This document shows, in pieces, positions 1 through 8,228 of a stretch of 8,228 nt of DNA. The notes beneath the pieces are model-generated. The model made no database searches, was not told the origin of the DNA, and saw only the letters and a list, made by a program, of their open reading frames with translations. The DNA is from a virus (lineage: Duplodnaviria > Heunggongvirae > Uroviricota > Caudoviricetes), in IMG/VR virus record IMGVR_UViG_2737471869_000029, positions 1 through 8,228 of that record; one strand, written 5' to 3'. Within the stretch, counting starts at the first letter, position 1. Each line of letters opens with the position of its first letter. Made by a program: the position numbers and the translations under genes.

Positions 1-52
1 GGACAGGCCCACCCCACCAGGAGGACCCGCAAAAAAGGCGGCTGCTGCCGCC
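1..52. repeat. Copy A of a conserved terminator-associated element (GGACAGGCCCACC-N3-CCAGGAG-N7-AAAAAAG-hairpin)
   Basis: Positions 1-37 align with 2530-2566: 13/13, then 3 mismatches, 7/7, 4/7, 7/7. Each copy is followed by a different GC-rich hairpin. Confidence 0.55.
31..52 (-). terminator. Rho-independent terminator after the capsid gene
   Basis: Minus-strand read: GGCGGC-AGCA-GCCGCC hairpin (37-52) followed by TTTTTT (31-36), 7 nt downstream of the stop at 59-61. Confidence 0.6.
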
Positions 53-58
53 TTGTTC

Positions 59-1939
59 TCATGAAGAAATCGCTCTGACCATTCCGCGATAATCCAGAGC
101 AGCAACGCCAGCATCAATGCGGACCTTCCAGGCCACACCGTCAACAATAAAGCCCTCCTGCTGCTCAAGGTAAGGCTCGTCATTACCGTCAAGATAAGCC
201 ACCTCAATTGTGTCCGTTCCCTGTGCTGAAAGCATGTACCATTGCTTATCACTGACTTCATCAAGGCGGGGATCGACAATAATATCCAGTTGTTTGTGGT
301 ACGGGTTATATGAACCACTGTTTGTATCGGCACCAAAAGGCGTGGTTGAGTTAACCATTTGCAACGCTCTGTCTTCCAGAGCCGCTGGAACAAGAAGGAA
401 TTTTGGCACAATATTCAGCACCTCACCGTTTTCATCCCTCTGTGTGCGCATTGCACGGCGTGCAATGCCAAGCCCTGTAGTGCTGACTCCGTTATCAATA
501 TCATTTCCGTGTTTTTTGCTGAACAGCGGTATACCGTCAGAAAGCTTTGTGTTTCCTGTCAGCACCAGATGAACCAGATTACCCACCGTTCTGGCGGCTG
601 CTCGCCCCATTGCCTGCGGGATAACGGTTAACTGATTCAGATCATCGTTAATAATCGCCTGTCGGGTAATGCTGAAAATATTACCGTAGGTGGCCAGCGC
701 GATTGGTTCACCACGGTCACTGGTGGTTATGTATTTATATTCCGCACCTTCCGGCACTTTGTTTAATGTCGAGAAGCCATTCAGACCAACACGACGCGCT
801 TCATGGAAGTTTGACAATGAACCTTTTTTCGTCCACTGGCGAAATGTCTCGCCGCTTTGCTCCCATCCGGCAAGCACTGATTTTTCAGCGCCACCAGCAA
901 GGATATAAGTAAAATCGCTGCTGCTGTGGTTGAATGCCGCGTTTACTATCTGCGAGCGTGTGCTGTAGCTGCCTGTGCTTATGCCGCGATGGGTTAATGA
1001 TGCCTGTGCCATATCGAAAAGGCTCATCATGGCGTAAGGGTTTCCGCGTTCTGCCTGCTCGTGCCCAAGACGCGCATTAAGCCCCTGACGCATTGCATCA
1101 CCCGTTATGTTGCCGTTATCCGTATATGCGTAGTAAAGATTTGCAGGTGTGGTTTTGTTTGTCGGTGTCGATTCTTTACCCATAGTGAGTAAAAGACGTT
1201 CGCGCGCATCCTCAACGCTACACCCTGAATCAGCAAGACAACTTATAGCCAGGTCGTTATATCTTCCGTTGAACGTACCGAACAACTCACGGATCCCGTT
1301 GAGTCGTTCCTGTTCTCCGCTGGTCGTTTTCTGGCTGATCATGTTCTTAATATTTTCCGGCATATTTGAAAAATCTCCGATTCGTTTTGATTCAATTCGG
1401 GCCATTGCTGTAATCGCGGGTATAACCTCGTCTGCGAAGCCGTTAGCCTTACACTCATTGCCATCCATCCAGGTTTCCGCCTCCATCATGGCGGTGATTT
1501 CCTGTTTGCTCCTGCCCGTTCTTCCGGCGTAGGTTTCAGCCATCGTGTCGCCCAGCTTGTCCATCAGGTCAGCAAAGCGGCGAACGTCGCCCGACACTCC
1601 GGCAGTAACACCACGGGGGGCATGTATCATCATCATTGCGTTTTCAGGCATAACGATGTGATCGCCACACATGGCAATAAACGAGGCCATAGAAGCCGCC
1701 ATGCCTTCAATGTGTACAATTTTCTTTGCCGGATGATTTTTCAGGGCGTTATAGATAGCCAGCCCTTCAAAGATGTCGCCACCAGGTGAATGGATGCGAA
1801 GATGGATTTCAGACGCATTACCACACGCGTTGATCTCGTCAGTAAGTGCCGATGCTTTTACACCGTACCCGCCGATCTCGTCATAAATGCGCACATAGAC
1901 AACATCTGCCATAGCCTTAATGGAAAACCATGTTTTCAT
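59..1939 (-). CDS. Prohead serine protease (ClpP-like) fused to HK97-fold major capsid protein, 626 aa
   Basis: N-terminal ~190 aa carries ClpP/S14-like motifs (HSPGGD, GMAASMAS with the nucleophile Ser, MMMIHAP with the His). The C-terminal ~400 aa has a phage major-capsid-like tail (FLLVPAALEDRAL ... GFIVDGVAWKVRIDAGVAALDYRGMVR). AGGAG sits 7 nt upstream of the ATG at 1939, and the start overlaps the upstream ORF stop (ATGA). A hairpin with T-tract follows the stop. Confidence 0.7.
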   Translation of the reverse strand: MKTWFSIKAMADVVYVRIYDEIGGYGVKASALTDEINACGNASEIHLRIHSPGGDIFEGLAIYNALKNHPAKKIVHIEGMAASMASFIAMCGDHIVMPENAMMMIHAPRGVTAGVSGDVRRFADLMDKLGDTMAETYAGRTGRSKQEITAMMEAETWMDGNECKANGFADEVIPAITAMARIESKRIGDFSNMPENIKNMISQKTTSGEQERLNGIRELFGTFNGRYNDLAISCLADSGCSVEDARERLLLTMGKESTPTNKTTPANLYYAYTDNGNITGDAMRQGLNARLGHEQAERGNPYAMMSLFDMAQASLTHRGISTGSYSTRSQIVNAAFNHSSSDFTYILAGGAEKSVLAGWEQSGETFRQWTKKGSLSNFHEARRVGLNGFSTLNKVPEGAEYKYITTSDRGEPIALATYGNIFSITRQAIINDDLNQLTVIPQAMGRAAARTVGNLVHLVLTGNTKLSDGIPLFSKKHGNDIDNGVSTTGLGIARRAMRTQRDENGEVLNIVPKFLLVPAALEDRALQMVNSTTPFGADTNSGSYNPYHKQLDIIVDPRLDEVSDKQWYMLSAQGTDTIEVAYLDGNDEPYLEQQEGFIVDGVAWKVRIDAGVAALDYRGMVRAISS

Positions 1940-2130
1940 AGCCAGGCTCCTAACGTTGCCCTGTACCAGTATTCAACCGCGCTGCGTGTGATTTGTCCTT
2001 TCGTGGGTACCGGCATACCCGGGTGATTGTCTTTGATGAACTGCTGATAGCGTTCGATCTTCTCCATAGTTCCGGCGTCTATGTGTACCGTGGCACTTTT
2101 ATCCGGCTTTCTGGTGTTGTTCTCTGGCAT
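1936..2130 (-). CDS. Hypothetical small protein, 64 aa from the ATG at 2130 (track gives 75 aa from 2163)
   Basis: GGAGG lies 8 nt upstream of the ATG at 2128-2130; the ATGATG at 2163 has no SD. Its stop overlaps the capsid start (ATGA), suggesting translational coupling. No recognisable motif. Confidence 0.5.
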   Translation of the reverse strand: MPENNTRKPDKSATVHIDAGTMEKIERYQQFIKDNHPGMPVPTKGQITRSAVEYWYRATLGAWL

Positions 2131-2212
2131 AAATCCGCCTCCGTTTTGATTAACGGGCATCATTATTGATCGATAAAAGTAATAGATAAATCATTTTCTA
2201 CCTGAAAATTAG

Positions 2213-2218
2213 ATTATA
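2213..2218 (-). promoter_or_regulatory. Candidate -10 hexamer (TATAAT on minus strand) for the small-ORF/capsid operon
   Basis: Perfect TATAAT on the minus strand about 80 nt upstream of the ORF start. No good -35 at 17 bp, which would fit an activator-dependent promoter. Confidence 0.25.
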
Positions 2219-2250
2219 TTTTTCTGATTATTCTCAGAGAGGCAAATCCA

Positions 2251-2280
2251 TTGACGCATTTTTGCTATTGAAGCAATATT
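2251..2280 (+). promoter_or_regulatory. Candidate sigma70 promoter on plus strand (TTGACG-N18-AATATT)
   Basis: TTGACG at 2251-2256 and AATATT at 2275-2280. It points rightward into a region with no plus-strand CDS but a strong plus-strand terminator 45-80 nt downstream. Confidence 0.3.
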
Positions 2281-2286
2281 AAGACT

Positions 2287-2361
2287 CGTCATCCTGGCGA
2301 TAAAAACTCCTTTGTCGTGTAAAAGCGCCTCCGGTAACAGCAATCGAGGGCGCTTTTTTTT
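2287..2361 (+). ncRNA. Candidate small RNA (about 75 nt) between the plus-strand promoter and terminator
   Basis: Bounded by the promoter candidate at 2251-2280 and the intrinsic terminator at 2325-2361. No ATG-initiated ORF inside. Purely structural inference. Confidence 0.2.
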
Positions 2362-2375
2362 GCGCCTGTTTTTTT
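2325..2375 (+). terminator. Strong plus-strand intrinsic terminator (tandem hairpins with T8 and T7 tracts)
   Basis: GCGCC(2325-2329) pairs with GGCGC(2349-2353), followed by T8 (2354-2361). A second hairpin GGCGC(2349-2353)/GCGCC(2362-2366) is followed by TGTTTTTTT. On the minus strand the T-tract is only TTTT. Confidence 0.55.
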
Positions 2376-2529
2376 GTAAATGTTTTCGGGAACGCTCCAG
2401 TGATGAACAAAAAACAACCTGATTCGACACTAAAAATTTTTATTCCTCAATATATCAATAACTTATAGTGGTGGTGATGGTGCCATAAAAATCAAAAAAT
2501 GCGCCTTTTTCCGCGCCCGCCCGCCCCGT

Positions 2530-2581
2530 GGACAGGCCCACCAAGCCAGGAGTACCTACAAAAAAGCCGGATTGCTCCGGC
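2530..2581. repeat. Copy B of the conserved terminator-associated element
   Basis: GGACAGGCCCACC (2530-2542), CCAGGAG (2546-2552), AAAAAAG (2560-2566), then hairpin GCCGGA-TTGC-TCCGGC (2566-2581). Preceded by an unusual CCGCGCCCGCCCGCCCC tract. Confidence 0.55.
2560..2581 (-). terminator. Rho-independent terminator after the 90-aa ORF
   Basis: Minus-strand read: GCCGGA-GCAA-TCCGGC hairpin followed by TTTTTT, 20 nt downstream of the ORF stop at 2601. Confidence 0.6.
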
Positions 2582-2600
2582 TGTGTGCTCACTTCTTCGG

Positions 2601-2873
2601 TTATTCTCCAGCGCTTTTAACGTTGATGGTTGTTACCTCTTCCGCTTCGGCAATCTCCCGCTCTGTCAGCGTGGCAAAGTTTGCCGCCGTCGTGGTCATG
2701 AATGCGCTTATCAGTTCGGGATGTGCTTTCGCATATCCTTCCCCCGCATGGCGGTCTATCGTTCTGATTGCCACCTTTAAAGCGTGCTCTGTCATGTCTA
2801 ACGCGCGATATTTCGGTTCTGTTCTGTCTCTGCGTTTTTTGAGTGATTTATTAAATTTCCCTGAAGTGTGCAT
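2601..2873 (-). CDS. Hypothetical protein, 90 aa, immediately downstream of the origin
   Basis: ATG at 2871-2873 with GAGGGGG about 11 nt upstream; own terminator downstream. Ala-rich helical-looking sequence with no motif I can name. Confidence 0.5.
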   Translation of the reverse strand: MHTSGKFNKSLKKRRDRTEPKYRALDMTEHALKVAIRTIDRHAGEGYAKAHPELISAFMTTTAANFATLTEREIAEAEEVTTINVKSAGE

Positions 2874-2919
2874 ATTTATTTTTACCCCCTCGTTTAAAAA
2901 GTTTTGAGTTGTGCCTCCC

Positions 2920-3150
2920 CTTGTCTACCTTATCTACCTTAGTGGCCATCATGCCAGTAATGGCGCGGCTTTCAGCGGGGTAGAGTGCTTTTATCCACTA
3001 TCTACCCCGTGTCTACCTCCCTGTCTGATTCAGGTAAAATCAGGTAGAGAGGGTAGATAGTGGGTAGACAGTAAAAAAAGGCTATCTACATAACTTAATG
3101 CACTGAATTAAATGTATTTTTCTTTACTCAGGTAGACAGGGTAGACAGCA
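2920..3150. repeat. Iteron-type replication origin: at least 10 copies of GGTAGA(C/G/T)(A) in both orientations around an AT-rich core
   Basis: TCTACC orientation at 2924-2929, 2933-2938, 3001-3006, 3012-3017. GGTAGA orientation at 3043-3048, 3052-3057, 3063-3068, and tandem GGTAGACAG at 3131-3139 and 3140-3148. AT-rich segment at 3072-3128. Sits directly 3' of the primase-helicase stop (3162). Confidence 0.65.
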
Positions 3151-3161
3151 ATTACAAAAAA

Positions 3162-4910
3162 TTATAAAAACGCGTCGCACTCGTCTGTTGTTATTGCGTT
3201 AGTCTGCGTTACTCCCTTAACTTTCCGCGTAATATATTCATGTCCGTAAACTTTCGCGGCTGGCTTCATAGCCTTGCCAAAGTCATTTACGTTTAGCGGT
3301 TTGCTCCTGCCTGCGTACGCCATAAACGCCAGATAGACGCGGTAAAGGCTGTTCCTGGTCGTGTACTTCACTGAATCACCACCGCCACCCATCATCAGGC
3401 CGCGCGCTTCCTCCAGAAAATTCAGGAACTGGCAAAACTCAATAACCGGATCCGTCTGTTGCTTTATTGCCAGTGCTTCATCACCGTCACGCTGTTCCAG
3501 TAGTAAAGCCCGTGCCTTCTCAGGGTCGGTAAAGTTCGCCAGCAATCGGCGGATAATGACAGGGATTTCAGCCGCGATCTTTTCCGGTAGCTCCCTGTCT
3601 TTTTCGGCCTCACTGACGATATTGTCGAAACGGAAAATTACGCGACGACGTGACACACCTCCGGCCCGTTCGGTGAATATCATCGGGTTATTGTTGGTAG
3701 CCAGCACCACCGCCCTGATTACCGCCGTAAAACGCTTCTCATATTTCGGGTTTATTTCCACGGGGTCGCCGCCCGTGATTTTCTTGATGCCCGTTCCTTC
3801 GCCTGTATATTTCGGCTGGTCAGCCAGGACGATAAGACGACTCCCGACAACCTGCGCACGTCCACCAGCATCATCAAGCGATGTCATCTCCGCGCTCACC
3901 GTGTTCTGTTTCCCTGCCAGAAGGCTGGCTATGTGCGTGAATGTACTTTTACCGCTCCCGCCGTCTCCGGTGGCCTCAATAAACATCTGCCAGTCGTACC
4001 GGTTCGCCATAATCATGTACAGCGCGGCACATATACGCATCATCTTGCGCGGGTCTTTTCCGGCTGCGTGCTCAAGCCATTTATGAAAGTTTGGCGCGTT
4101 ATCGCGGATGTTCTCCCCAGGTGCTGGTGGCGTGTACTCAATGCCGTTGTGCGTGGTGATCCAGTTCTCCGGCGTGTGCGGGGAAAATTCCCCCGTTTTC
4201 AGGTCAAGCGCACCATTGGCGAACGGCAACAAATCGCCGGACGGCTCGCCCATTGGTTCGGCAATAACTTTTAACGCTTCCACGGCGTTATTGATTACGC
4301 GCTTGCTGAAAGTGGCCCTGTGCTCTGAATAGATCGCCACCATTTCGCGGCTAAGTTCCATTGTGCTGACCGGACACCATACCCCGCCGCGCCATACGTG
4401 AACGATTTCACTTTCCGGATGCACACAAACGCCATCAAATCGACCAGCAAGCATCTGTGCGCGCTCACTGTCTGCCATTTGTGCCAATTGCGTATTTTTC
4501 TGCTCCGGCATGGTAAGCCCTGCGGCAATATTTTCACGCTCAGCATTCAGATAGCGCCGCCAGTTTTCACACTTCTGGACGTGCATTCCTTCGGGGTAAA
4601 AATTTGCGTCCTGAATATCTGCCGCCGCCAGCTTCTGACCAATCTTCTTGGTCTCCACTAAATCCAGTTCTCCGGCCTGGTACAGCCTTACGCGCTTTTT
4701 CCCATCCGGAACAATTTTCAGCGCATCAAGTTCGGCAAGCTGATTTGGCCCAAGCCACACAGGCGGCACATTATCGCCGGATGCGGGGCCATCCTGCTCC
4801 TGCCATTGTTCCGCGTGTGACCAGGCATCACTACCCGCAAAGATAATTACCTCTGTGTCTTTGTGTTTTATTCCGCGTGGCTGTTTTTTTACGTTCGGTG
4901 CCAGTTTCAT
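3162..4910 (-). CDS. Replication primase / SF3 helicase (P4 alpha-like, D5 family; PICI pri-rep type), 582 aa
   Basis: Walker A GDGGSGKST and a downstream hydrophobic-acidic stretch (LIVLAD) typical of D5-like helicases; large N-terminal domain. Start ATG overlaps the upstream ORF stop (ATGA). Iterons lie immediately downstream. Confidence 0.88.
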   Translation of the reverse strand: MKLAPNVKKQPRGIKHKDTEVIIFAGSDAWSHAEQWQEQDGPASGDNVPPVWLGPNQLAELDALKIVPDGKKRVRLYQAGELDLVETKKIGQKLAAADIQDANFYPEGMHVQKCENWRRYLNAERENIAAGLTMPEQKNTQLAQMADSERAQMLAGRFDGVCVHPESEIVHVWRGGVWCPVSTMELSREMVAIYSEHRATFSKRVINNAVEALKVIAEPMGEPSGDLLPFANGALDLKTGEFSPHTPENWITTHNGIEYTPPAPGENIRDNAPNFHKWLEHAAGKDPRKMMRICAALYMIMANRYDWQMFIEATGDGGSGKSTFTHIASLLAGKQNTVSAEMTSLDDAGGRAQVVGSRLIVLADQPKYTGEGTGIKKITGGDPVEINPKYEKRFTAVIRAVVLATNNNPMIFTERAGGVSRRRVIFRFDNIVSEAEKDRELPEKIAAEIPVIIRRLLANFTDPEKARALLLEQRDGDEALAIKQQTDPVIEFCQFLNFLEEARGLMMGGGGDSVKYTTRNSLYRVYLAFMAYAGRSKPLNVNDFGKAMKPAAKVYGHEYITRKVKGVTQTNAITTDECDAFL

Positions 4911-5206
4911 TTTTTACCCCTGAATACGTTAAGCATCTTTTTTATTTCCTGAATATTGGCGCGTGCTTTCTCCCTGCTGGTGGGCACGTTATGCGGCGCG
5001 GTCTGTACAAGAGAAAAATCACGCCGGAACTGATAAACAGGCATCACGCAATCATATTCGTAACCCTCACGGCGGTAAGTTACGCACCGTCCCGCCACGC
5101 CCTTAATCATTACCGTGCCGCCGTACTGGTCGCGGTAAATATCACCGCGCGTAAATTTAGGGTGAGTGTTGCCACTGGCAGTTAAGCCAGAATATTTAAG
5201 TTTCAT
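4907..5206 (-). CDS. Hypothetical protein, 99 aa, coupled to the primase-helicase
   Basis: ATG at 5204-5206 with GGAG about 11 nt upstream; stop overlaps the primase start. No recognisable motif. Confidence 0.55.
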   Translation of the reverse strand: MKLKYSGLTASGNTHPKFTRGDIYRDQYGGTVMIKGVAGRCVTYRREGYEYDCVMPVYQFRRDFSLVQTAPHNVPTSREKARANIQEIKKMLNVFRGKK

Positions 5207-5211
5207 TATTT

Positions 5212-5442
5212 TTATTCTCCGGTGTGGGGCACGTTATTATTTTCGTGAATTGCCATTGCCTTATCCAGTTCATCAATAACAGGCGATAGTAATGTCTGAA
5301 TGGCTGCAAACATTAATACACCTGATTCCTCACCACCTTCCGGCACTTCAATTAATTTAATTAACAACGCATTCATTTCGCGCGCTTTAATTAATGCGTT
5401 TTCAGAGTGGATTAATACTTCAAAAGGGATTTTATGCATCAC
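5212..5442 (-). CDS. Hypothetical small protein, 75-76 aa (GTG at 5442 or ATG at 5439)
   Basis: GGGAG lies 7 nt upstream of the GTG; the start overlaps the stop of the upstream 66-aa ORF (GTGATG / TGA). Helical, acidic sequence. Confidence 0.5.
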   Translation of the reverse strand: MMHKIPFEVLIHSENALIKAREMNALLIKLIEVPEGGEESGVLMFAAIQTLLSPVIDELDKAMAIHENNNVPHTGE

Positions 5443-5639
5443 AAAATTTCTCCCTGGCGAATACGGGCGGCGAATACCATCACGCAGCCATCAGGAGATT
5501 GCTGGCGTGCTTCCTGTTCGCTGGTGGCCTCAATGGTAATCACGCGCGGTTGTGCAGTGCTCAGGGCGATAAAACGCCAGATGTATTTATTCAGGTTGTG
5601 CGAGTCCCGCCCTTGCGGGTGTGTAGTATGATTTCTCAT
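5439..5639 (-). CDS. Hypothetical small protein, 66 aa, first gene of the leftward replication operon
   Basis: ATG at 5637-5639 with GAGGT 5 nt upstream. It is the C-terminal part of the 303-aa track ORF, which I reject as a whole. Confidence 0.45.
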   Translation of the reverse strand: MRNHTTHPQGRDSHNLNKYIWRFIALSTAQPRVITIEATSEQEARQQSPDGCVMVFAARIRQGEIL

Positions 5640-5735
5640 AGCTACCTCGATACTGTTGCTATCGTTGGTGGTTAGAAGCCCGGTTAGTGTTAGCGCACTG
5701 CCGGGTTTCGTCGTTTCTGCACCTTGCATCAACAA

Positions 5736-5810
5736 GGTGTTGAACACCAATTTAAACCTAGGTGTTAAACACGTCAAGTGTTGAACACTTGTTTTTTTTC
5801 CTGCATACTG
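5736..5810. promoter_or_regulatory. Genetic switch: three palindromic operators GTGTTnAACAC over back-to-back divergent promoters
   Basis: Operators at 5737-5747, 5762-5772 and 5778-5788. Leftward promoter candidate (minus strand) TTGACG 5772-5777, N17, TAAATT 5749-5754. Rightward candidate TTGAAC 5781-5786, N17, CATACT 5804-5809. Confidence 0.6.
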
Positions 5811-5838
5811 CATTTGTTTTTTGTGAGGGGGACACAAC

Positions 5839-6018
5839 ATGGCGACAAAAGCAGTAAACGCAAAATCACAAACAGTTGCGGCAAGGGTTCCGCATGAAGT
5901 TATGAACAATGTTGAGGCGGTAAAAATGCCTGGTGAAAGTACAGGGCAGTTTGTAACAGCAGCATTAAAGCGAGAAGTTGAGTACCGCCAGCGCCGCAAG
6001 GCCAAAGAATCAGAATAA
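5839..6018 (+). CDS. Small ribbon-helix-helix-like DNA-binding protein, 59 aa (not in the ORF track)
   Basis: ATG at 5839 with GAGGGGG 6 nt upstream. Sequence MATKAVNAKSQTVAARVPHEVMNNVEAVKMPGESTGQFVTAALKREVEYRQRRKAKESE fits an RHH (Arc/CopG-like) beta-helix-GxS/T-helix pattern. Transcribed divergently from the replication operon. Confidence 0.55.
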   Translation: MATKAVNAKSQTVAARVPHEVMNNVEAVKMPGESTGQFVTAALKREVEYRQRRKAKESE

Positions 6019-6075
6019 TAACTATCATCGCCGTGGTGTGAGGAACTCCGGCGCATTGCTTTACAGGTACACAGA

Positions 6076-6249
6076 ATGACCAACAAAGAATCAACCAATA
6101 CACCATCACCGGCACGGAAAAGACGGCGCAGAAAGATAGAGCATGAATCAGAAAGATTCGCGCCATGTGCTTTTGCCCTTGAGCAATTCCTTAAAGAGTA
6201 CAGGGAAACGCGCTCATTGCAGGTATGGCAACGAACTGAACCAGACTGA
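6076..6249 (+). CDS. Hypothetical small basic protein, 57 aa (not in the ORF track)
   Basis: ATG at 6076 with a weak AGGT SD 7 nt upstream; same frame as the RHH ORF. Arg/Lys-rich N-terminus (ARKRRRRK). A plus-strand terminator follows. Confidence 0.3.
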   Translation: MTNKESTNTPSPARKRRRRKIEHESERFAPCAFALEQFLKEYRETRSLQVWQRTEPD

Positions 6250-6313
6250 TTGCATTGCCCACCAGCCTGATAGCGGCTATCATCCCCGTGCTTATGTTTA
6301 GTGCTTTCCCATT

Positions 6314-6344
6314 GGCGACCGCCCCCGGTCGCCTTTGTTTTATG
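6314..6344 (+). terminator. Plus-strand intrinsic terminator ending the rightward small operon
   Basis: Perfect 8-bp stem GGCGACCG / CGGTCGCC (6314-6321, 6326-6333) with a 4-nt loop, then TTTGTTTTATG. No T-tract on the minus strand. Confidence 0.6.
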
Positions 6345-6360
6345 TGTCATATGCTCCCCT

Positions 6361-6570
6361 TTACACTGCCTTACCTGAATTAATGCGATCCCGGCTTTTA
6401 ACCCATTCCATAACCTCGGACAGCAGCCACCCTACAGAACGACCGCCCAGATTAAGACGTGACGGAAAGCGCCCTTTTTTCTCCAGTTCGTAACGTGTAG
6501 TGCGGCACACTCCAGTTAACTTACGACATTCATCCTCACGGATTACGCGATCTTCATTTATTTCACGCAT
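6361..6570 (-). CDS. alpA: AlpA-family (excisionase-like) transcriptional regulator, 69 aa from the ATG at 6570 (track gives 98 aa from a GTG at 6657)
   Basis: Conserved AlpA core CRKLTGVCRTTRYELEKKGRFPSRLNLGGRSVGWLLSEVMEWV. The 87 bp between 6571 and 6657 is very AT-rich, promoter-like, and has no SD before the GTG, so I prefer the ATG start. Confidence 0.82.
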   Translation of the reverse strand: MREINEDRVIREDECRKLTGVCRTTRYELEKKGRFPSRLNLGGRSVGWLLSEVMEWVKSRDRINSGKAV

Positions 6571-6693
6571 ACAAAAACCTACATAAAAATTACGTATATA
6601 AACTTTTCTCTTAGCTGTAGATATATGAGATCGGATATTACTTAGATTCTTTTTCACCTCTTAAATTAAAAACACAACCATGCTAAAGGCTTT

Positions 6694-6720
6694 GTTCGCT
6701 AAGGTTCGTAGAAGCTCGTT
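6694..6720. promoter_or_regulatory. Three 10-bp-phased direct repeats G(T/C)TCG(C/T)T upstream of alpA
   Basis: GTTCGCT at 6694, GTTCGTA at 6704, GCTCGTT at 6714: exact 10-bp periodicity. Confidence 0.3.
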
Positions 6721-6911
6721 AGTGTTTAAAATCGTGTCACGAGTTTTTAAGCGACGCAACAAAAAATGTCGTCATTTGGCATGACACCTGAATCACCTCA
6801 TTAAAAACAAATAGATAAACCATCAGGTGTTGGAACAATCAAGAAACAGAGAATAAGAACTCAGAAGAAGACATTTCAAATTTTTTCGATAGTTGACACA
6901 TATAAAGAGAA

Positions 6912-6983
6912 GATATTTGCAGATATTCCCCGATATTCTAAGATCTATTCACGGCTGTAATCTCTTAAAGAAAAAACAGCCGT
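6912..6983. promoter_or_regulatory. 10-bp-phased GATATT repeats plus an 8-bp inverted repeat just downstream of the int stop
   Basis: GATATT at 6912-6917, 6922-6927 and 6932-6937, with a degenerate GATCTATT at 6942-6949. Inverted repeat ACGGCTGT (6951-6958) / ACAGCCGT (6976-6983) with a 17-nt A-rich loop. A perfect TTGACA sits at 6893-6898. Confidence 0.35.
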
Positions 6984-6989
6984 AATTTG

Positions 6990-8228
6990 TCAAGAATTTT
7001 GGGGGTAAATTCGCGGGGTCATAACAACGATTTTTTCATCATTGTTCTGGAGAAGCTCGAGACGGTCTACCCATAGATTAAGAGCATCACGTTTTGCATC
7101 AAGGTAGCGGGAGTGGTTATAGACTCGTTGCATCCCTGGCATCTGGTGGGCTGTAAGCTGCTCGACAATATGCGGATCCACGCCTAAATCGTTCAGCATG
7201 GTTGTAAATGTGTGCCGGATATCGTGTAACGTCCAAGGGGCTTGATTAATTCGTCTGTGCGCTGTTCTTCCGTACTCTGCTACCGAAGATTGTCCTTTCA
7301 GTTCACCAAGCAATAAGCCCGTGTGTCTGTTCTGCTCCACCAGTTGCGTGACGAACGGCAAAATGCTTTCCGGTATTGGCCTGAATATGGCGACCTTCGT
7401 TTTGCTGTGCTCCTTCGGTACTGTCCAGAGCATTTCTTTAAAATCCCACTCCTGCACCTCAGAGCGCCTTAGCTCAGTGGTACGGCATCCAAAAACAATC
7501 AGGAGGCGAATTAGGGCGCTGTAGTATGGCGGGAATATTTTGTCATCCAGGGCGCGGAGTAATTCCCCAAGCTCCTTGTTTGTTAGTACGCGCTCGCTCA
7601 CTTCTGCTTTTTTTCCCACATCACCGACAACCATATCATCAAGAACGTTGCTGATTGCGTATCGTCGTTTTCGGCAGTACTTAAGCGCCTGTTTGCATAC
7701 CTGTAGCAAAAATCCGGCAGATACTGGGCTTCGCTTTGCCATCTGGTCAAAACATGCCAACCAGTGCCGTAGCTCGCATTTTTCCAACGGCAAAGCGCCA
7801 ATCTGGCTGATTATGTGTTTATTGATCCGGCTTTTCAGTGATTCGTAGTCAGTGCGCTTTTCCTTTGCATACGATTCAAGCCAGTAAGTGAGCGCTTCCT
7901 TAACTGTCACGGGGGCTAACGCATCCTGTACAGCACGATTAAGCTCATAGCGCGGATTTTTCCCCTCAGCCAGCCAGGCGCGACACTGTGCTGCTTTTTC
8001 CCTGGCTGCTTTCAGGCTCAGATCGGGATAATTGCCCAGTCTCAGACGTTCCGGTGATACCTGCCTACCAGTTCCGGCCCTGTAAGTGAAATACCAGGTT
8101 AACAGGCCGCTGGTGGAATGTCTTACGCTAAGATTGCCACCGTCATTAAAAAAGGCGTTTTTTGTGGTTGGTGATCCGCTTAATTTTCGTAAAAGAGTGT
8201 CGCTAAGTCTATGAATTGCGCTGCTCAT
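6990..8228 (-). CDS. int: Tyrosine recombinase / integrase, P4-type, 412 aa
   Basis: P4-int-like N-terminal arm-binding region (FNDGGNLSVRHSTSGLLTWYFTYR), catalytic motifs LHDIRHTFTT (His-x-x-Arg) and VYNHSRY (Tyr nucleophile), conserved Arg in GCRTTELRR. ATG is at 8226-8228, the window edge. Confidence 0.93.
   Translation of the reverse strand: MSSAIHRLSDTLLRKLSGSPTTKNAFFNDGGNLSVRHSTSGLLTWYFTYRAGTGRQVSPERLRLGNYPDLSLKAAREKAAQCRAWLAEGKNPRYELNRAVQDALAPVTVKEALTYWLESYAKEKRTDYESLKSRINKHIISQIGALPLEKCELRHWLACFDQMAKRSPVSAGFLLQVCKQALKYCRKRRYAISNVLDDMVVGDVGKKAEVSERVLTNKELGELLRALDDKIFPPYYSALIRLLIVFGCRTTELRRSEVQEWDFKEMLWTVPKEHSKTKVAIFRPIPESILPFVTQLVEQNRHTGLLLGELKGQSSVAEYGRTAHRRINQAPWTLHDIRHTFTTMLNDLGVDPHIVEQLTAHQMPGMQRVYNHSRYLDAKRDALNLWVDRLELLQNNDEKIVVMTPRIYPQNS

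Follow-up and report, generated by a model that had tools for sequence, protein, structure and literature searches.

The closest described counterpart of the locus analysed here is the eta/kil region of the phage satellite P4. In the part of PMC10111431 that summarises Forti et al. 1999, a constitutive promoter is described inside eta, with Kil being a shortened version of Eta; the full-length protein is produced solely from an upstream late promoter, its translation is coupled to that of an alpA homologue, and translation of Eta keeps termination from occurring, which lets the late transcript read through. We analysed a stretch of 8,228 nucleotides (nt) of IMG/VR record IMGVR_UViG_2737471869_000029 (positions 1 to 8,228; hereafter the window), which is a P4-related, capsid-encoding phage satellite of Escherichia coli of the capsid-forming phage-inducible chromosomal island (cf-PICI) type. 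Following its alpA gene is a minus-strand open reading frame (ORF) of 303 amino acids (aa), here called the bridge ORF, which terminates in frame as an Icd/Kil-like gene and is antisense to a plus-strand operon of two small genes (ORF1 and ORF2), to three operators, to both promoters and to a candidate small RNA (sRNA). By analogy with P4, we consider it rather probable that this is an eta-like frame enclosing an antisense repressor operon and serving helper-driven, translation-coupled read-through.

In the P4 record (NC_001609), vis (ORF88) is followed by a 214-codon ORF that corresponds to eta with nested kil. Residues 37-161 of Eta match Phage_ASH (PF10554, E = 4.5e-23), and residues 161-208, corresponding to Kil, match the Icd-like model NF033153 (E = 1.4e-20). 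The same model is matched by residues 19-62 of the 66-aa Icd/Kil-like protein of the window (E = 9e-20; RefSeq WP_001244088.1), and the AlpA protein of the window is 43% identical to P4 ORF88/Vis (E = 1e-19). A BLASTP comparison of the bridge ORF with P4 Eta recovers a weak match in the Kil part only (E = 0.31); Kil homology was established via the shared NCBIfam model instead. The two elements agree in gene order, with an AlpA/Vis homologue, a long ORF placed directly after it in a coupling layout, a Kil/Icd-like in-frame 3' end of about 65 aa and then replication genes. Both also contain a promoter inside the long ORF (predicted in the window), and their Kil and Vis proteins are homologous. 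The elements differ in what lies opposite the long ORF, as the body of the bridge ORF is the antisense of a putative protein-repressor operon, its operators and a candidate antisense sRNA. P4 has RNA immunity, and we know of no gene described opposite eta.

The Icd/Kil-like gene of the window is the first gene past an early promoter predicted by consensus match, and it forms the in-frame 3' end of an ORF that starts upstream of this promoter. The bridge ORF directly follows the AlpA/Vis homologue, and the junction reads alpA-TAA-AGGGGAGCAT-ATG on the minus strand, a layout that would suit translational coupling. Among 48 distinct junction sequences that follow alpA or Bro-type genes, at least 14 combine a stop codon with a G-rich Shine-Dalgarno (SD) sequence and an ATG within 8-19 nt; the Proteus junction is an ATGA overlap. 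The start of alpA itself is ambiguous, being either a GTG at 6657 (98 aa, in the mechanical ORF list) or the ATG at 6570 used by RefSeq (69 aa); the Pfam domain is compatible with both.

For comparison we used 15 related E. coli/Shigella loci with 70-94% nucleotide identity, 80 IMG/VR loci (34 of them non-redundant) and loci from Klebsiella, Proteus and Xenorhabdus. The bridge is in frame with the Icd-like gene in 11 of the 15 E. coli/Shigella loci and in Proteus, and 52 of the 80 IMG/VR open frames finish as an Icd-like C-terminus. The exact bridge sequence is present on 427 contigs under the GenBank name 'Icd-like protein', a name also given to forms of up to 366 aa. These observations, together with P4 Eta, which is a protein in its own right and bears an ASH domain, agree with a long Icd/Kil isoform that has a fast-evolving or disordered extension at its N-terminus and works as a protein, for example in the targeting or timing of division inhibition, and not by anti-termination. 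We consider such an isoform unlikely. In Klebsiella and in four of the 15 loci the ORF terminates a short way ahead of the following gene instead of fusing to it, the sequence of the extension is dictated by the opposite strand, and the extension holds no domain or conserved motif independent of ORF1 and ORF2; upstream of the Icd domain the bridge has no Pfam, NCBIfam or PHROG match. The amino-acid sequence of the bridge is not conserved, and replacements in the minus frame are radical. The N-terminal 237 aa contain 5.1% Cys, 11.0% Ser, 10.1% Thr and 1.7% Glu, compared with approximately 1%, 4-7%, 5-7% and 6-7.5%, respectively, in the capsid, primase and integrase of the island. We propose that the bridge ORF is selected to stay open and not for its sequence.

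The bridge frame is free of stop codons over 253-628 codons in all 15 E. coli/Shigella loci, which represent six ORF1/operator types and in which the open stretch takes in spacer, promoter region and terminator, and over 207-307 codons in Klebsiella, Proteus and Xenorhabdus, in DNA of 40-45% GC. Among the 80 IMG/VR loci the median open stretch is 331 codons, compared with 32 and 31 for the two remaining minus frames, and 75 loci are open from -150 to +280 relative to the ORF1 start; of the other five, one runs off its contig and four are interrupted by a stop in the operator region. These four stops (loci L038, L054, L060 and L069) lie 25-82 nt upstream of the ORF1 start, and the loci could be decaying copies or tolerated variants.

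A more sceptical explanation is that only the plus-strand operon is functional and that, upstream of the 66-aa Icd-like gene, the minus-strand ORF is a shadow of the plus-strand genes, open by chance. The two strands share wobble positions here, and with the plus-strand proteins held fixed, an exact calculation gives a probability of no stop of 0.16-0.82 over ORF1 and 0.27-0.83 over ORF2, so that an open frame across just the coding parts would not be improbable; the odd composition, the unconstrained residues and the lack of a domain upstream of Icd fit the same explanation. We nevertheless regard it as still less likely than a functional long isoform, since approximately 120 noncoding codons in the window (operator/promoter, spacer and 3' region; a larger number in some relatives) are also stop-free in nearly every relative and sequence type. 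Under a null model in which synonymous codons of the plus genes were resampled and noncoding parts were dinucleotide-shuffled, the probability of finding zero stops was ≤0.002 in each of nine lineages, and all nine are open. The other two minus frames hold 10-29 stops over the same stretches in these lineages, and about 20 stops per kb in the 15 relatives. Such frame-specific avoidance of stops in noncoding DNA is hard to explain unless the bridge frame is translated. The openness of 75 of the 80 IMG/VR loci, the SD and ATG directly after alpA and the precedent of P4 eta likewise speak against a chance origin. As a separate observation, minus frames 0 and 1 of the window show an excess of stops over the null between 5640 and 6360 (18 vs 7.7 and 10 vs 9.3), and a similar or larger excess is seen in most of the nine lineages.

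A preliminary description of this DNA, made from the sequence alone, had taken the 303-aa ORF for an artefact of the ORF list, partly because it would have to read through both promoters. Neither the verdict nor the argument is supported, as the ORF has an Icd/Kil-like 3' end, its frame is interrupted by a stop in hardly any relative, and P4 eta likewise reads across a promoter. The Cys/Ser/Thr-rich composition that it reported is real and is accompanied by a scarcity of Glu. It had further allowed that relatives keeping the minus frame while breaking the plus-strand ORFs would count against its view; the minus frame is indeed kept, but the plus-strand ORFs are not broken.

The minus frame shares wobble positions with ORF1 and ORF2, so neither third-position variability nor indel length can separate the strands. 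Indel length was rejected as a strand test because multiples of three are uninformative on the coding strand, and third-position variability was replaced by a comparison of first with second positions and by BLOSUM62 scores of the replacements. Variability in ORF1 is 0.245, 0.145 and 0.392 at first, second and third positions, respectively; this order (second < first < third) is that expected of plus-strand coding, indicating that ORF1 is read on the plus strand. The mean BLOSUM62 score of replacements is +0.07 in the plus frame versus -1.21 in the minus frame for ORF1, and +0.05 versus -1.08 for ORF2. The ratio of nonsynonymous to synonymous differences (pN/pS) in the plus frame is 0.39 for ORF1 and 0.35 for ORF2, and approximately 1 in out-of-phase plus frames; for ORF2 the minus-frame value is 0.49, and third positions are the most variable. 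Judged by these substitution patterns, ORF1 and ORF2 are both protein-coding, and ORF2 is under selection at the protein level.

ORF1 scores 59.7 bits against the NCBIfam model NF041551 of the YlcI/YnfO family (curated cut-off 30, E = 2.1e-16) and covers the whole profile (positions 1-42 of 42). This family of small prophage proteins corresponds to Pfam DUF3950, which one diverged ORF1 relative matches with E = 1.6e-6, and ORF1 also matches phrog_949. Homologues are present in Salmonella, Klebsiella, Serratia, Pectobacterium, Proteus and Xenorhabdus. A tblastn search of a phage collection with ORF1 gave no match. The start positions of ORF1 and ORF2, the 57-nt spacer between them and their shared frame are retained in all 15 E. 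coli/Shigella relatives, the ORF2 ATG lies exactly 57 nt past the ORF1 stop in 52 of the 80 IMG/VR loci, and an SD-like purine run occupies the same place in every ORF1 type. The converse proposal, that the 303-aa minus-strand protein is the sole genuine gene, with ORF1 and ORF2 as shadows on the opposite strand, can appeal to records showing minus-strand features only (such as that of O157:H7 strain 1130) and to the database name of the long form, but is practically dismissed by the membership of ORF1 in a curated family across Enterobacterales, by the codon-position and BLOSUM tests, which favour the plus frame for both ORFs, by the plus-strand SDs, fixed starts and stops and terminators, and by the covariation of the operators with ORF1 residues described below.

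Annotation of this stretch varies among records. Over 6014-6299 (minus strand) and in loci L002, L004 and L103, RefSeq shows in some cases a plus-strand YlcI/YnfO gene and in others a minus-strand 'hypothetical' or 'Icd-like' pseudogene fragment. The Icd-like gene is annotated at 66, 116 or 135 aa, with the full 303-366 aa form named 'Icd-like' in GenBank, and the record of O157:H7 strain 1130, in which a 314-aa form of the long ORF is intact, includes neither plus-strand gene.

ORF2 homologues form 40 protein clusters, E. coli/Shigella throughout, and a search of genome contigs recovers a single locus. They share a conserved core, ERFAPCAFALEkFLKEY, with in-frame indels, and ORF2 matches phrog_21027 (E = 1.2e-13); according to an AlphaFold2 model (pLDDT 71), the protein has one helix and a basic N-terminus that is probably disordered. 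ORF2 is absent from the Proteus and Xenorhabdus loci compared, and in the Klebsiella loci an unrelated 84-aa ORF takes its place. There (L017/L018, 2692-2946, plus strand) the gene caller starts the 84-aa ORF at the last base of the ORF1 stop, in a different frame, and the antisense bridge frame is open across it too. We propose that ORF2 is an accessory small basic protein beside ORF1. The 57-nt spacer shows no period-3 variability, and its hairpin contains one G.U pair in 13 of 13 sequences, favouring the plus strand; it is possibly an attenuator or a processing site.

The operon ends at an intrinsic terminator with an 8-bp stem that includes 7 GC pairs (-17.5 kcal/mol, z = -4.2; 0 of 200 shuffles fold equally well). 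The hairpin lacks a T tract on its minus side and is therefore not a minus-strand terminator. A plus-strand intrinsic terminator follows the operon in every relative, in three unrelated sequence versions. Upstream of it, the 13-bp palindrome GATAGCGGCTATC is intact in the window, in the near-identical RefSeq copy (L001), and in L006 and L014, and has one mismatch in L004; the other relatives have unrelated sequence at this position. Together with a promoter-like match at 6255-6283, the palindrome was dropped as not conserved. The scan gave three promoter-like matches, near the 1.5 expected from shuffles. In one E. coli locus (L007, 579-1704) the whole ORF1-ORF2 module is tandemly duplicated, with two ORF1/ORF2 pairs in series.

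The evidence that ORF1 acts as a repressor comes chiefly from covariation. We surveyed 98 loci, comparing ORF1 residues 9-20 with the repeated motif upstream of the gene, and found that the predicted beta-strand (residues 10-17) covaries with the repeat in about ten specificity types from several genera. Proteins with KSQT[VIL]AARVPH are paired with GTGTTNAACAC in E. coli and other relatives, and those with KSKKLEARVPH are paired with TGTCAGCCA in both E. coli and Proteus. Further pairings are KSQSVTARIAH with GTGTAAGACAC, KSKRIDARVPL with TGTCGGACA, KSQMTTVRIPH with GTGTATTTCAC and KSAKKNIRFPH with TGTGCGCACA. The repeats keep fixed positions relative to the ORF1 ATG, near -102, -77 and -31, with the third site at -61 in the type to which the window belongs. 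Given this covariation, the strongest evidence we have, ORF1 very probably represses the divergent promoters. A mosaic boundary lies inside ORF1 (window 5985-6075; L002-L015): the N-terminal 45 or so codons and the operators vary between types, while all types have in common the tail of ORF1 (RRQRRKAKExE), the hairpin-containing 57-nt spacer and ORF2, which suggests recombination that exchanges only the specificity part.

The fold is consistent with such a role. In an AlphaFold2 model of ORF1 (pLDDT 83), residues 11-18 are extended and residues 19-28 and 35-58 are helical, matching the N-terminal strand and two helices of a ribbon-helix-helix (RHH) protein. A profile search of PDB sequences returned chance matches only, Foldseek against PDB and BFVD returned nothing significant, and neither sequence nor Foldseek comparison significantly links ORF1 to any RHH family, including the repressors Arc and Mnt of P22, CopG, MetJ and RHH antitoxins. 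By direct comparison, ORF1 is thus only weakly placed among RHH proteins. ORF1 might be a dimer whose beta-ribbon reads repeated operator half-sites; the covariation of residues 10-17 with the repeat bears on this indirectly.

Two divergent promoters are predicted among the operators. The -35 element of the early promoter (CGTCAA on the plus strand) is conserved in several types, and the second operator (O2) lies in its spacer and the first (O1) near +1. The putative ORF1 promoter was read by eye, as its 8 of 12 consensus matches fall under the scanner threshold; in other types a T-run is followed by a conserved -10-like TATAyT.

Most of what the preliminary description had said of the plus strand is borne out. 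The 59-aa RHH-like ORF and the 57-aa ORF in its frame, the operators, the terminator and the palindrome are all present, and the proposal of the RHH-like protein as the best candidate repressor gains from the structural model and the covariation. The SD was also correctly recognised, with a spacing to the ATG of 7 nt instead of 6. The operon cannot be called unlisted, as ORF1 is WP_000201463.1, a 'YlcI/YnfO family protein', in the RefSeq annotation of a 99.8% identical O145:H28 genome, and ORF2 is annotated sporadically (e.g. WP_157918692.1 in strain CS5L).

A candidate cis-antisense sRNA lies opposite the 5' untranslated region and SD of the Icd-like gene. Its consensus fold, obtained from 14 loci of five genera, has 23 pairs, seven of them with compensatory changes, and its G.U pairs favour the plus strand; the hairpins are conserved from E. 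coli to Xenorhabdus. A -10-like TGGTATGAT is conserved just upstream, with TAGTATGAT at 5624-5632 in the window. The arrangement resembles SymR/SymE in that the candidate RNA begins beside the Icd-like start codon on the opposite strand, spans the SD and finishes with a terminator hairpin. It differs in that the Rfam SymR model (RF01809) scores 32.9 bits, below the gathering threshold of 61 (E = 0.003), and the Icd-like protein, a cell-division inhibitor, is unrelated to SymE.

Taken as an eta-like bridge, the locus could work as follows. In the resident state, ORF1 would bind the three GTGTTNAACAC operators (with GTGTTGAACAC as the proposed target), repress the early promoter that serves the genes from icd-like through primase, and regulate its own promoter, while the terminator would halt the ORF1-ORF2 transcript before alpA. 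Once a helper phage activates the promoter upstream of alpA, RNA polymerase would traverse the region, and ribosomes on the bridge ORF may shield the transcript from Rho or other termination, as in P4. Expression of the replication genes would then no longer depend on the repressor, whose operon would be silenced by convergent transcription together with antisense RNA. Under this scheme, selection would keep the act of translating the bridge and not its residues.

Several points weigh against this scheme. The N-terminal 237 aa of the bridge lack the Phage_ASH domain in Pfam searches, unlike P4 Eta, and no C4 or isrK (CI/seqA) RNA is found in the window with Rfam at E ≤ 1; P4 immunity has therefore not just been taken over unchanged. 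In 4 of 79 complete IMG/VR loci a stop falls within the operator region, so openness is not absolute, and in the four E. coli/Shigella loci mentioned above the bridge stops just before the next gene instead of continuing in frame. Both promoters are predicted from consensus matches, and bridge translation, Rho dependence, anti-termination, interference and repression by ORF1 are all steps that we infer.

A further-reaching idea, which we offer tentatively and rate below the eta-like reading itself, is that in this satellite family approximately 0.7 kb is translated on both strands and that the overlap is itself the switch, the bridge being selected for translatability while specificity modules are swapped within it. 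In the quiescent state the plus strand would yield the RHH-like repressor, ORF2 and the antisense sRNA; upon induction, read-through from the alpA promoter would both bypass the repressor-controlled promoter and extinguish the repressor operon. Repressor-operator modules would have been exchanged repeatedly inside the bridge with the frame never broken.

Features of the window discussed in the text, ordered by position
Feature	Position	Strand	Basis or remark
ClpP-protease/major-capsid fusion	59-1939	minus	ORF list and family scans
Primase	3162-4910	minus	ORF list and family scans
DUF4222 protein		minus	ORF list and family scans
Bridge ORF, 303 aa	5439-6350	minus	ATG after alpA; terminates in frame as Icd/Kil-like gene
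Icd/Kil-like gene, 66 aa	5439-5639	minus	Own SD (GAGG); nested in frame at bridge 3' end
Candidate cis-antisense sRNA, ~75 nt	5640-5712	plus	Two hairpins, the second a terminator
Three operators, GTGTT(G/A)AACAC	5737-5747, 5762-5772, 5778-5788		
Early promoter (predicted)	5749-5777	minus	-35 TTGACG, 17 nt, -10 TAAATT; consensus scan
ORF1 promoter (putative)	5781-5809	plus	-35 TTGAAC overlapping O3, 17 nt, -10 CATACT
SD of ORF1, GAGGGGG	5825-5831	plus	Read from sequence; 7 nt before ATG at 5839
ORF1, 59 aa, YlcI/YnfO family, RHH-like	5839-6018	plus	NF041551 match
Spacer hairpin	6028-6054	plus	Consensus fold, 10 pairs, no compensatory changes
ORF2, 57 aa	6076-6249	plus	Same frame as ORF1 (offset 237 nt)
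13-bp palindrome GATAGCGGCTATC	6269-6281		Poorly conserved
Intrinsic terminator of ORF1-ORF2 transcript	6314 to ~6343	plus	Stem 6314-6333, then TTTGTTTTAT
alpA/bridge junction	6348-6363	minus	alpA TAA, SD AGGGGAG, then ATG; 10-nt gap
alpA, P4 Vis homologue	6361-6657	minus	PF05930, E = 2e-16
Tyrosine integrase	6990-8228	minus	ORF list and family scans

The island is only partly contained in the window, and packaging genes past the capsid fusion are outside the scope of the analysis. Carrying its own protease/capsid gene alongside int, alpA and a primase in a small island, the element resembles cf-PICIs of the EcCIEDL933 type and P4-like satellites. Used as a query, positions 5400-6700 share 99.8% identity with an island that adjoins cspD/yljB in the chromosome of E. 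coli O145:H28, and have partial matches in 1803 of 5426 complete E. coli genomes. Chi sites (GCTGGTGG) occur seven times in 8.2 kb, compared with 0.2 expected from shuffles, at positions 891, 3862, 4123, 4976, 5520, 6259 and 8109. The pair at 5520-5527 (plus) and 6259-6266 (minus) flanks the ORF1 module, its offsets from ORF1 are kept in most relatives, and its orientation suits stopping RecBCD that enters from a break between the two sites. A long hairpin directly downstream of the primase (2992-3075) gives weak Rfam matches of the microRNA-precursor type on both strands (E = 0.2-0.75), and is probably merely a large inverted repeat, for example a terminator or an origin element.

In the cf-PICI family, alpA is required for induction (10.1101/2022.09.08.507074), and the word 'repressor' occurs 0 times in the paper reporting this. 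YlcI/YnfO is named in cf-PICIs only as a 'prophage-associated protein' (PMC13612085), and the searchable literature assigns no function to the family; in the window, its member is located at a divergent promoter with covarying operators. Among the papers on P4-like satellites that a literature search listed, none mentions ribbon-helix-helix, and we found no description of a bridge ORF with an embedded antisense repressor operon. This variant of the P4 eta/kil device therefore appears to be new.

These results would provide phage satellites of the cf-PICI/P4-like group with a testable repressor-operator switch with exchangeable specificities, a repressor switch being an addition to the description of the cf-PICI family. 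The locus also represents an unusually well-supported case of a long antisense ORF that appears to be held open by selection across genera while its protein is free to drift, which bears on how overlapping ORFs are judged and annotated, as illustrated by a stretch that RefSeq labels in three inconsistent ways. If our reading is correct, the P4 principle of translating in order to read through would extend to elements that carry a protein repressor.

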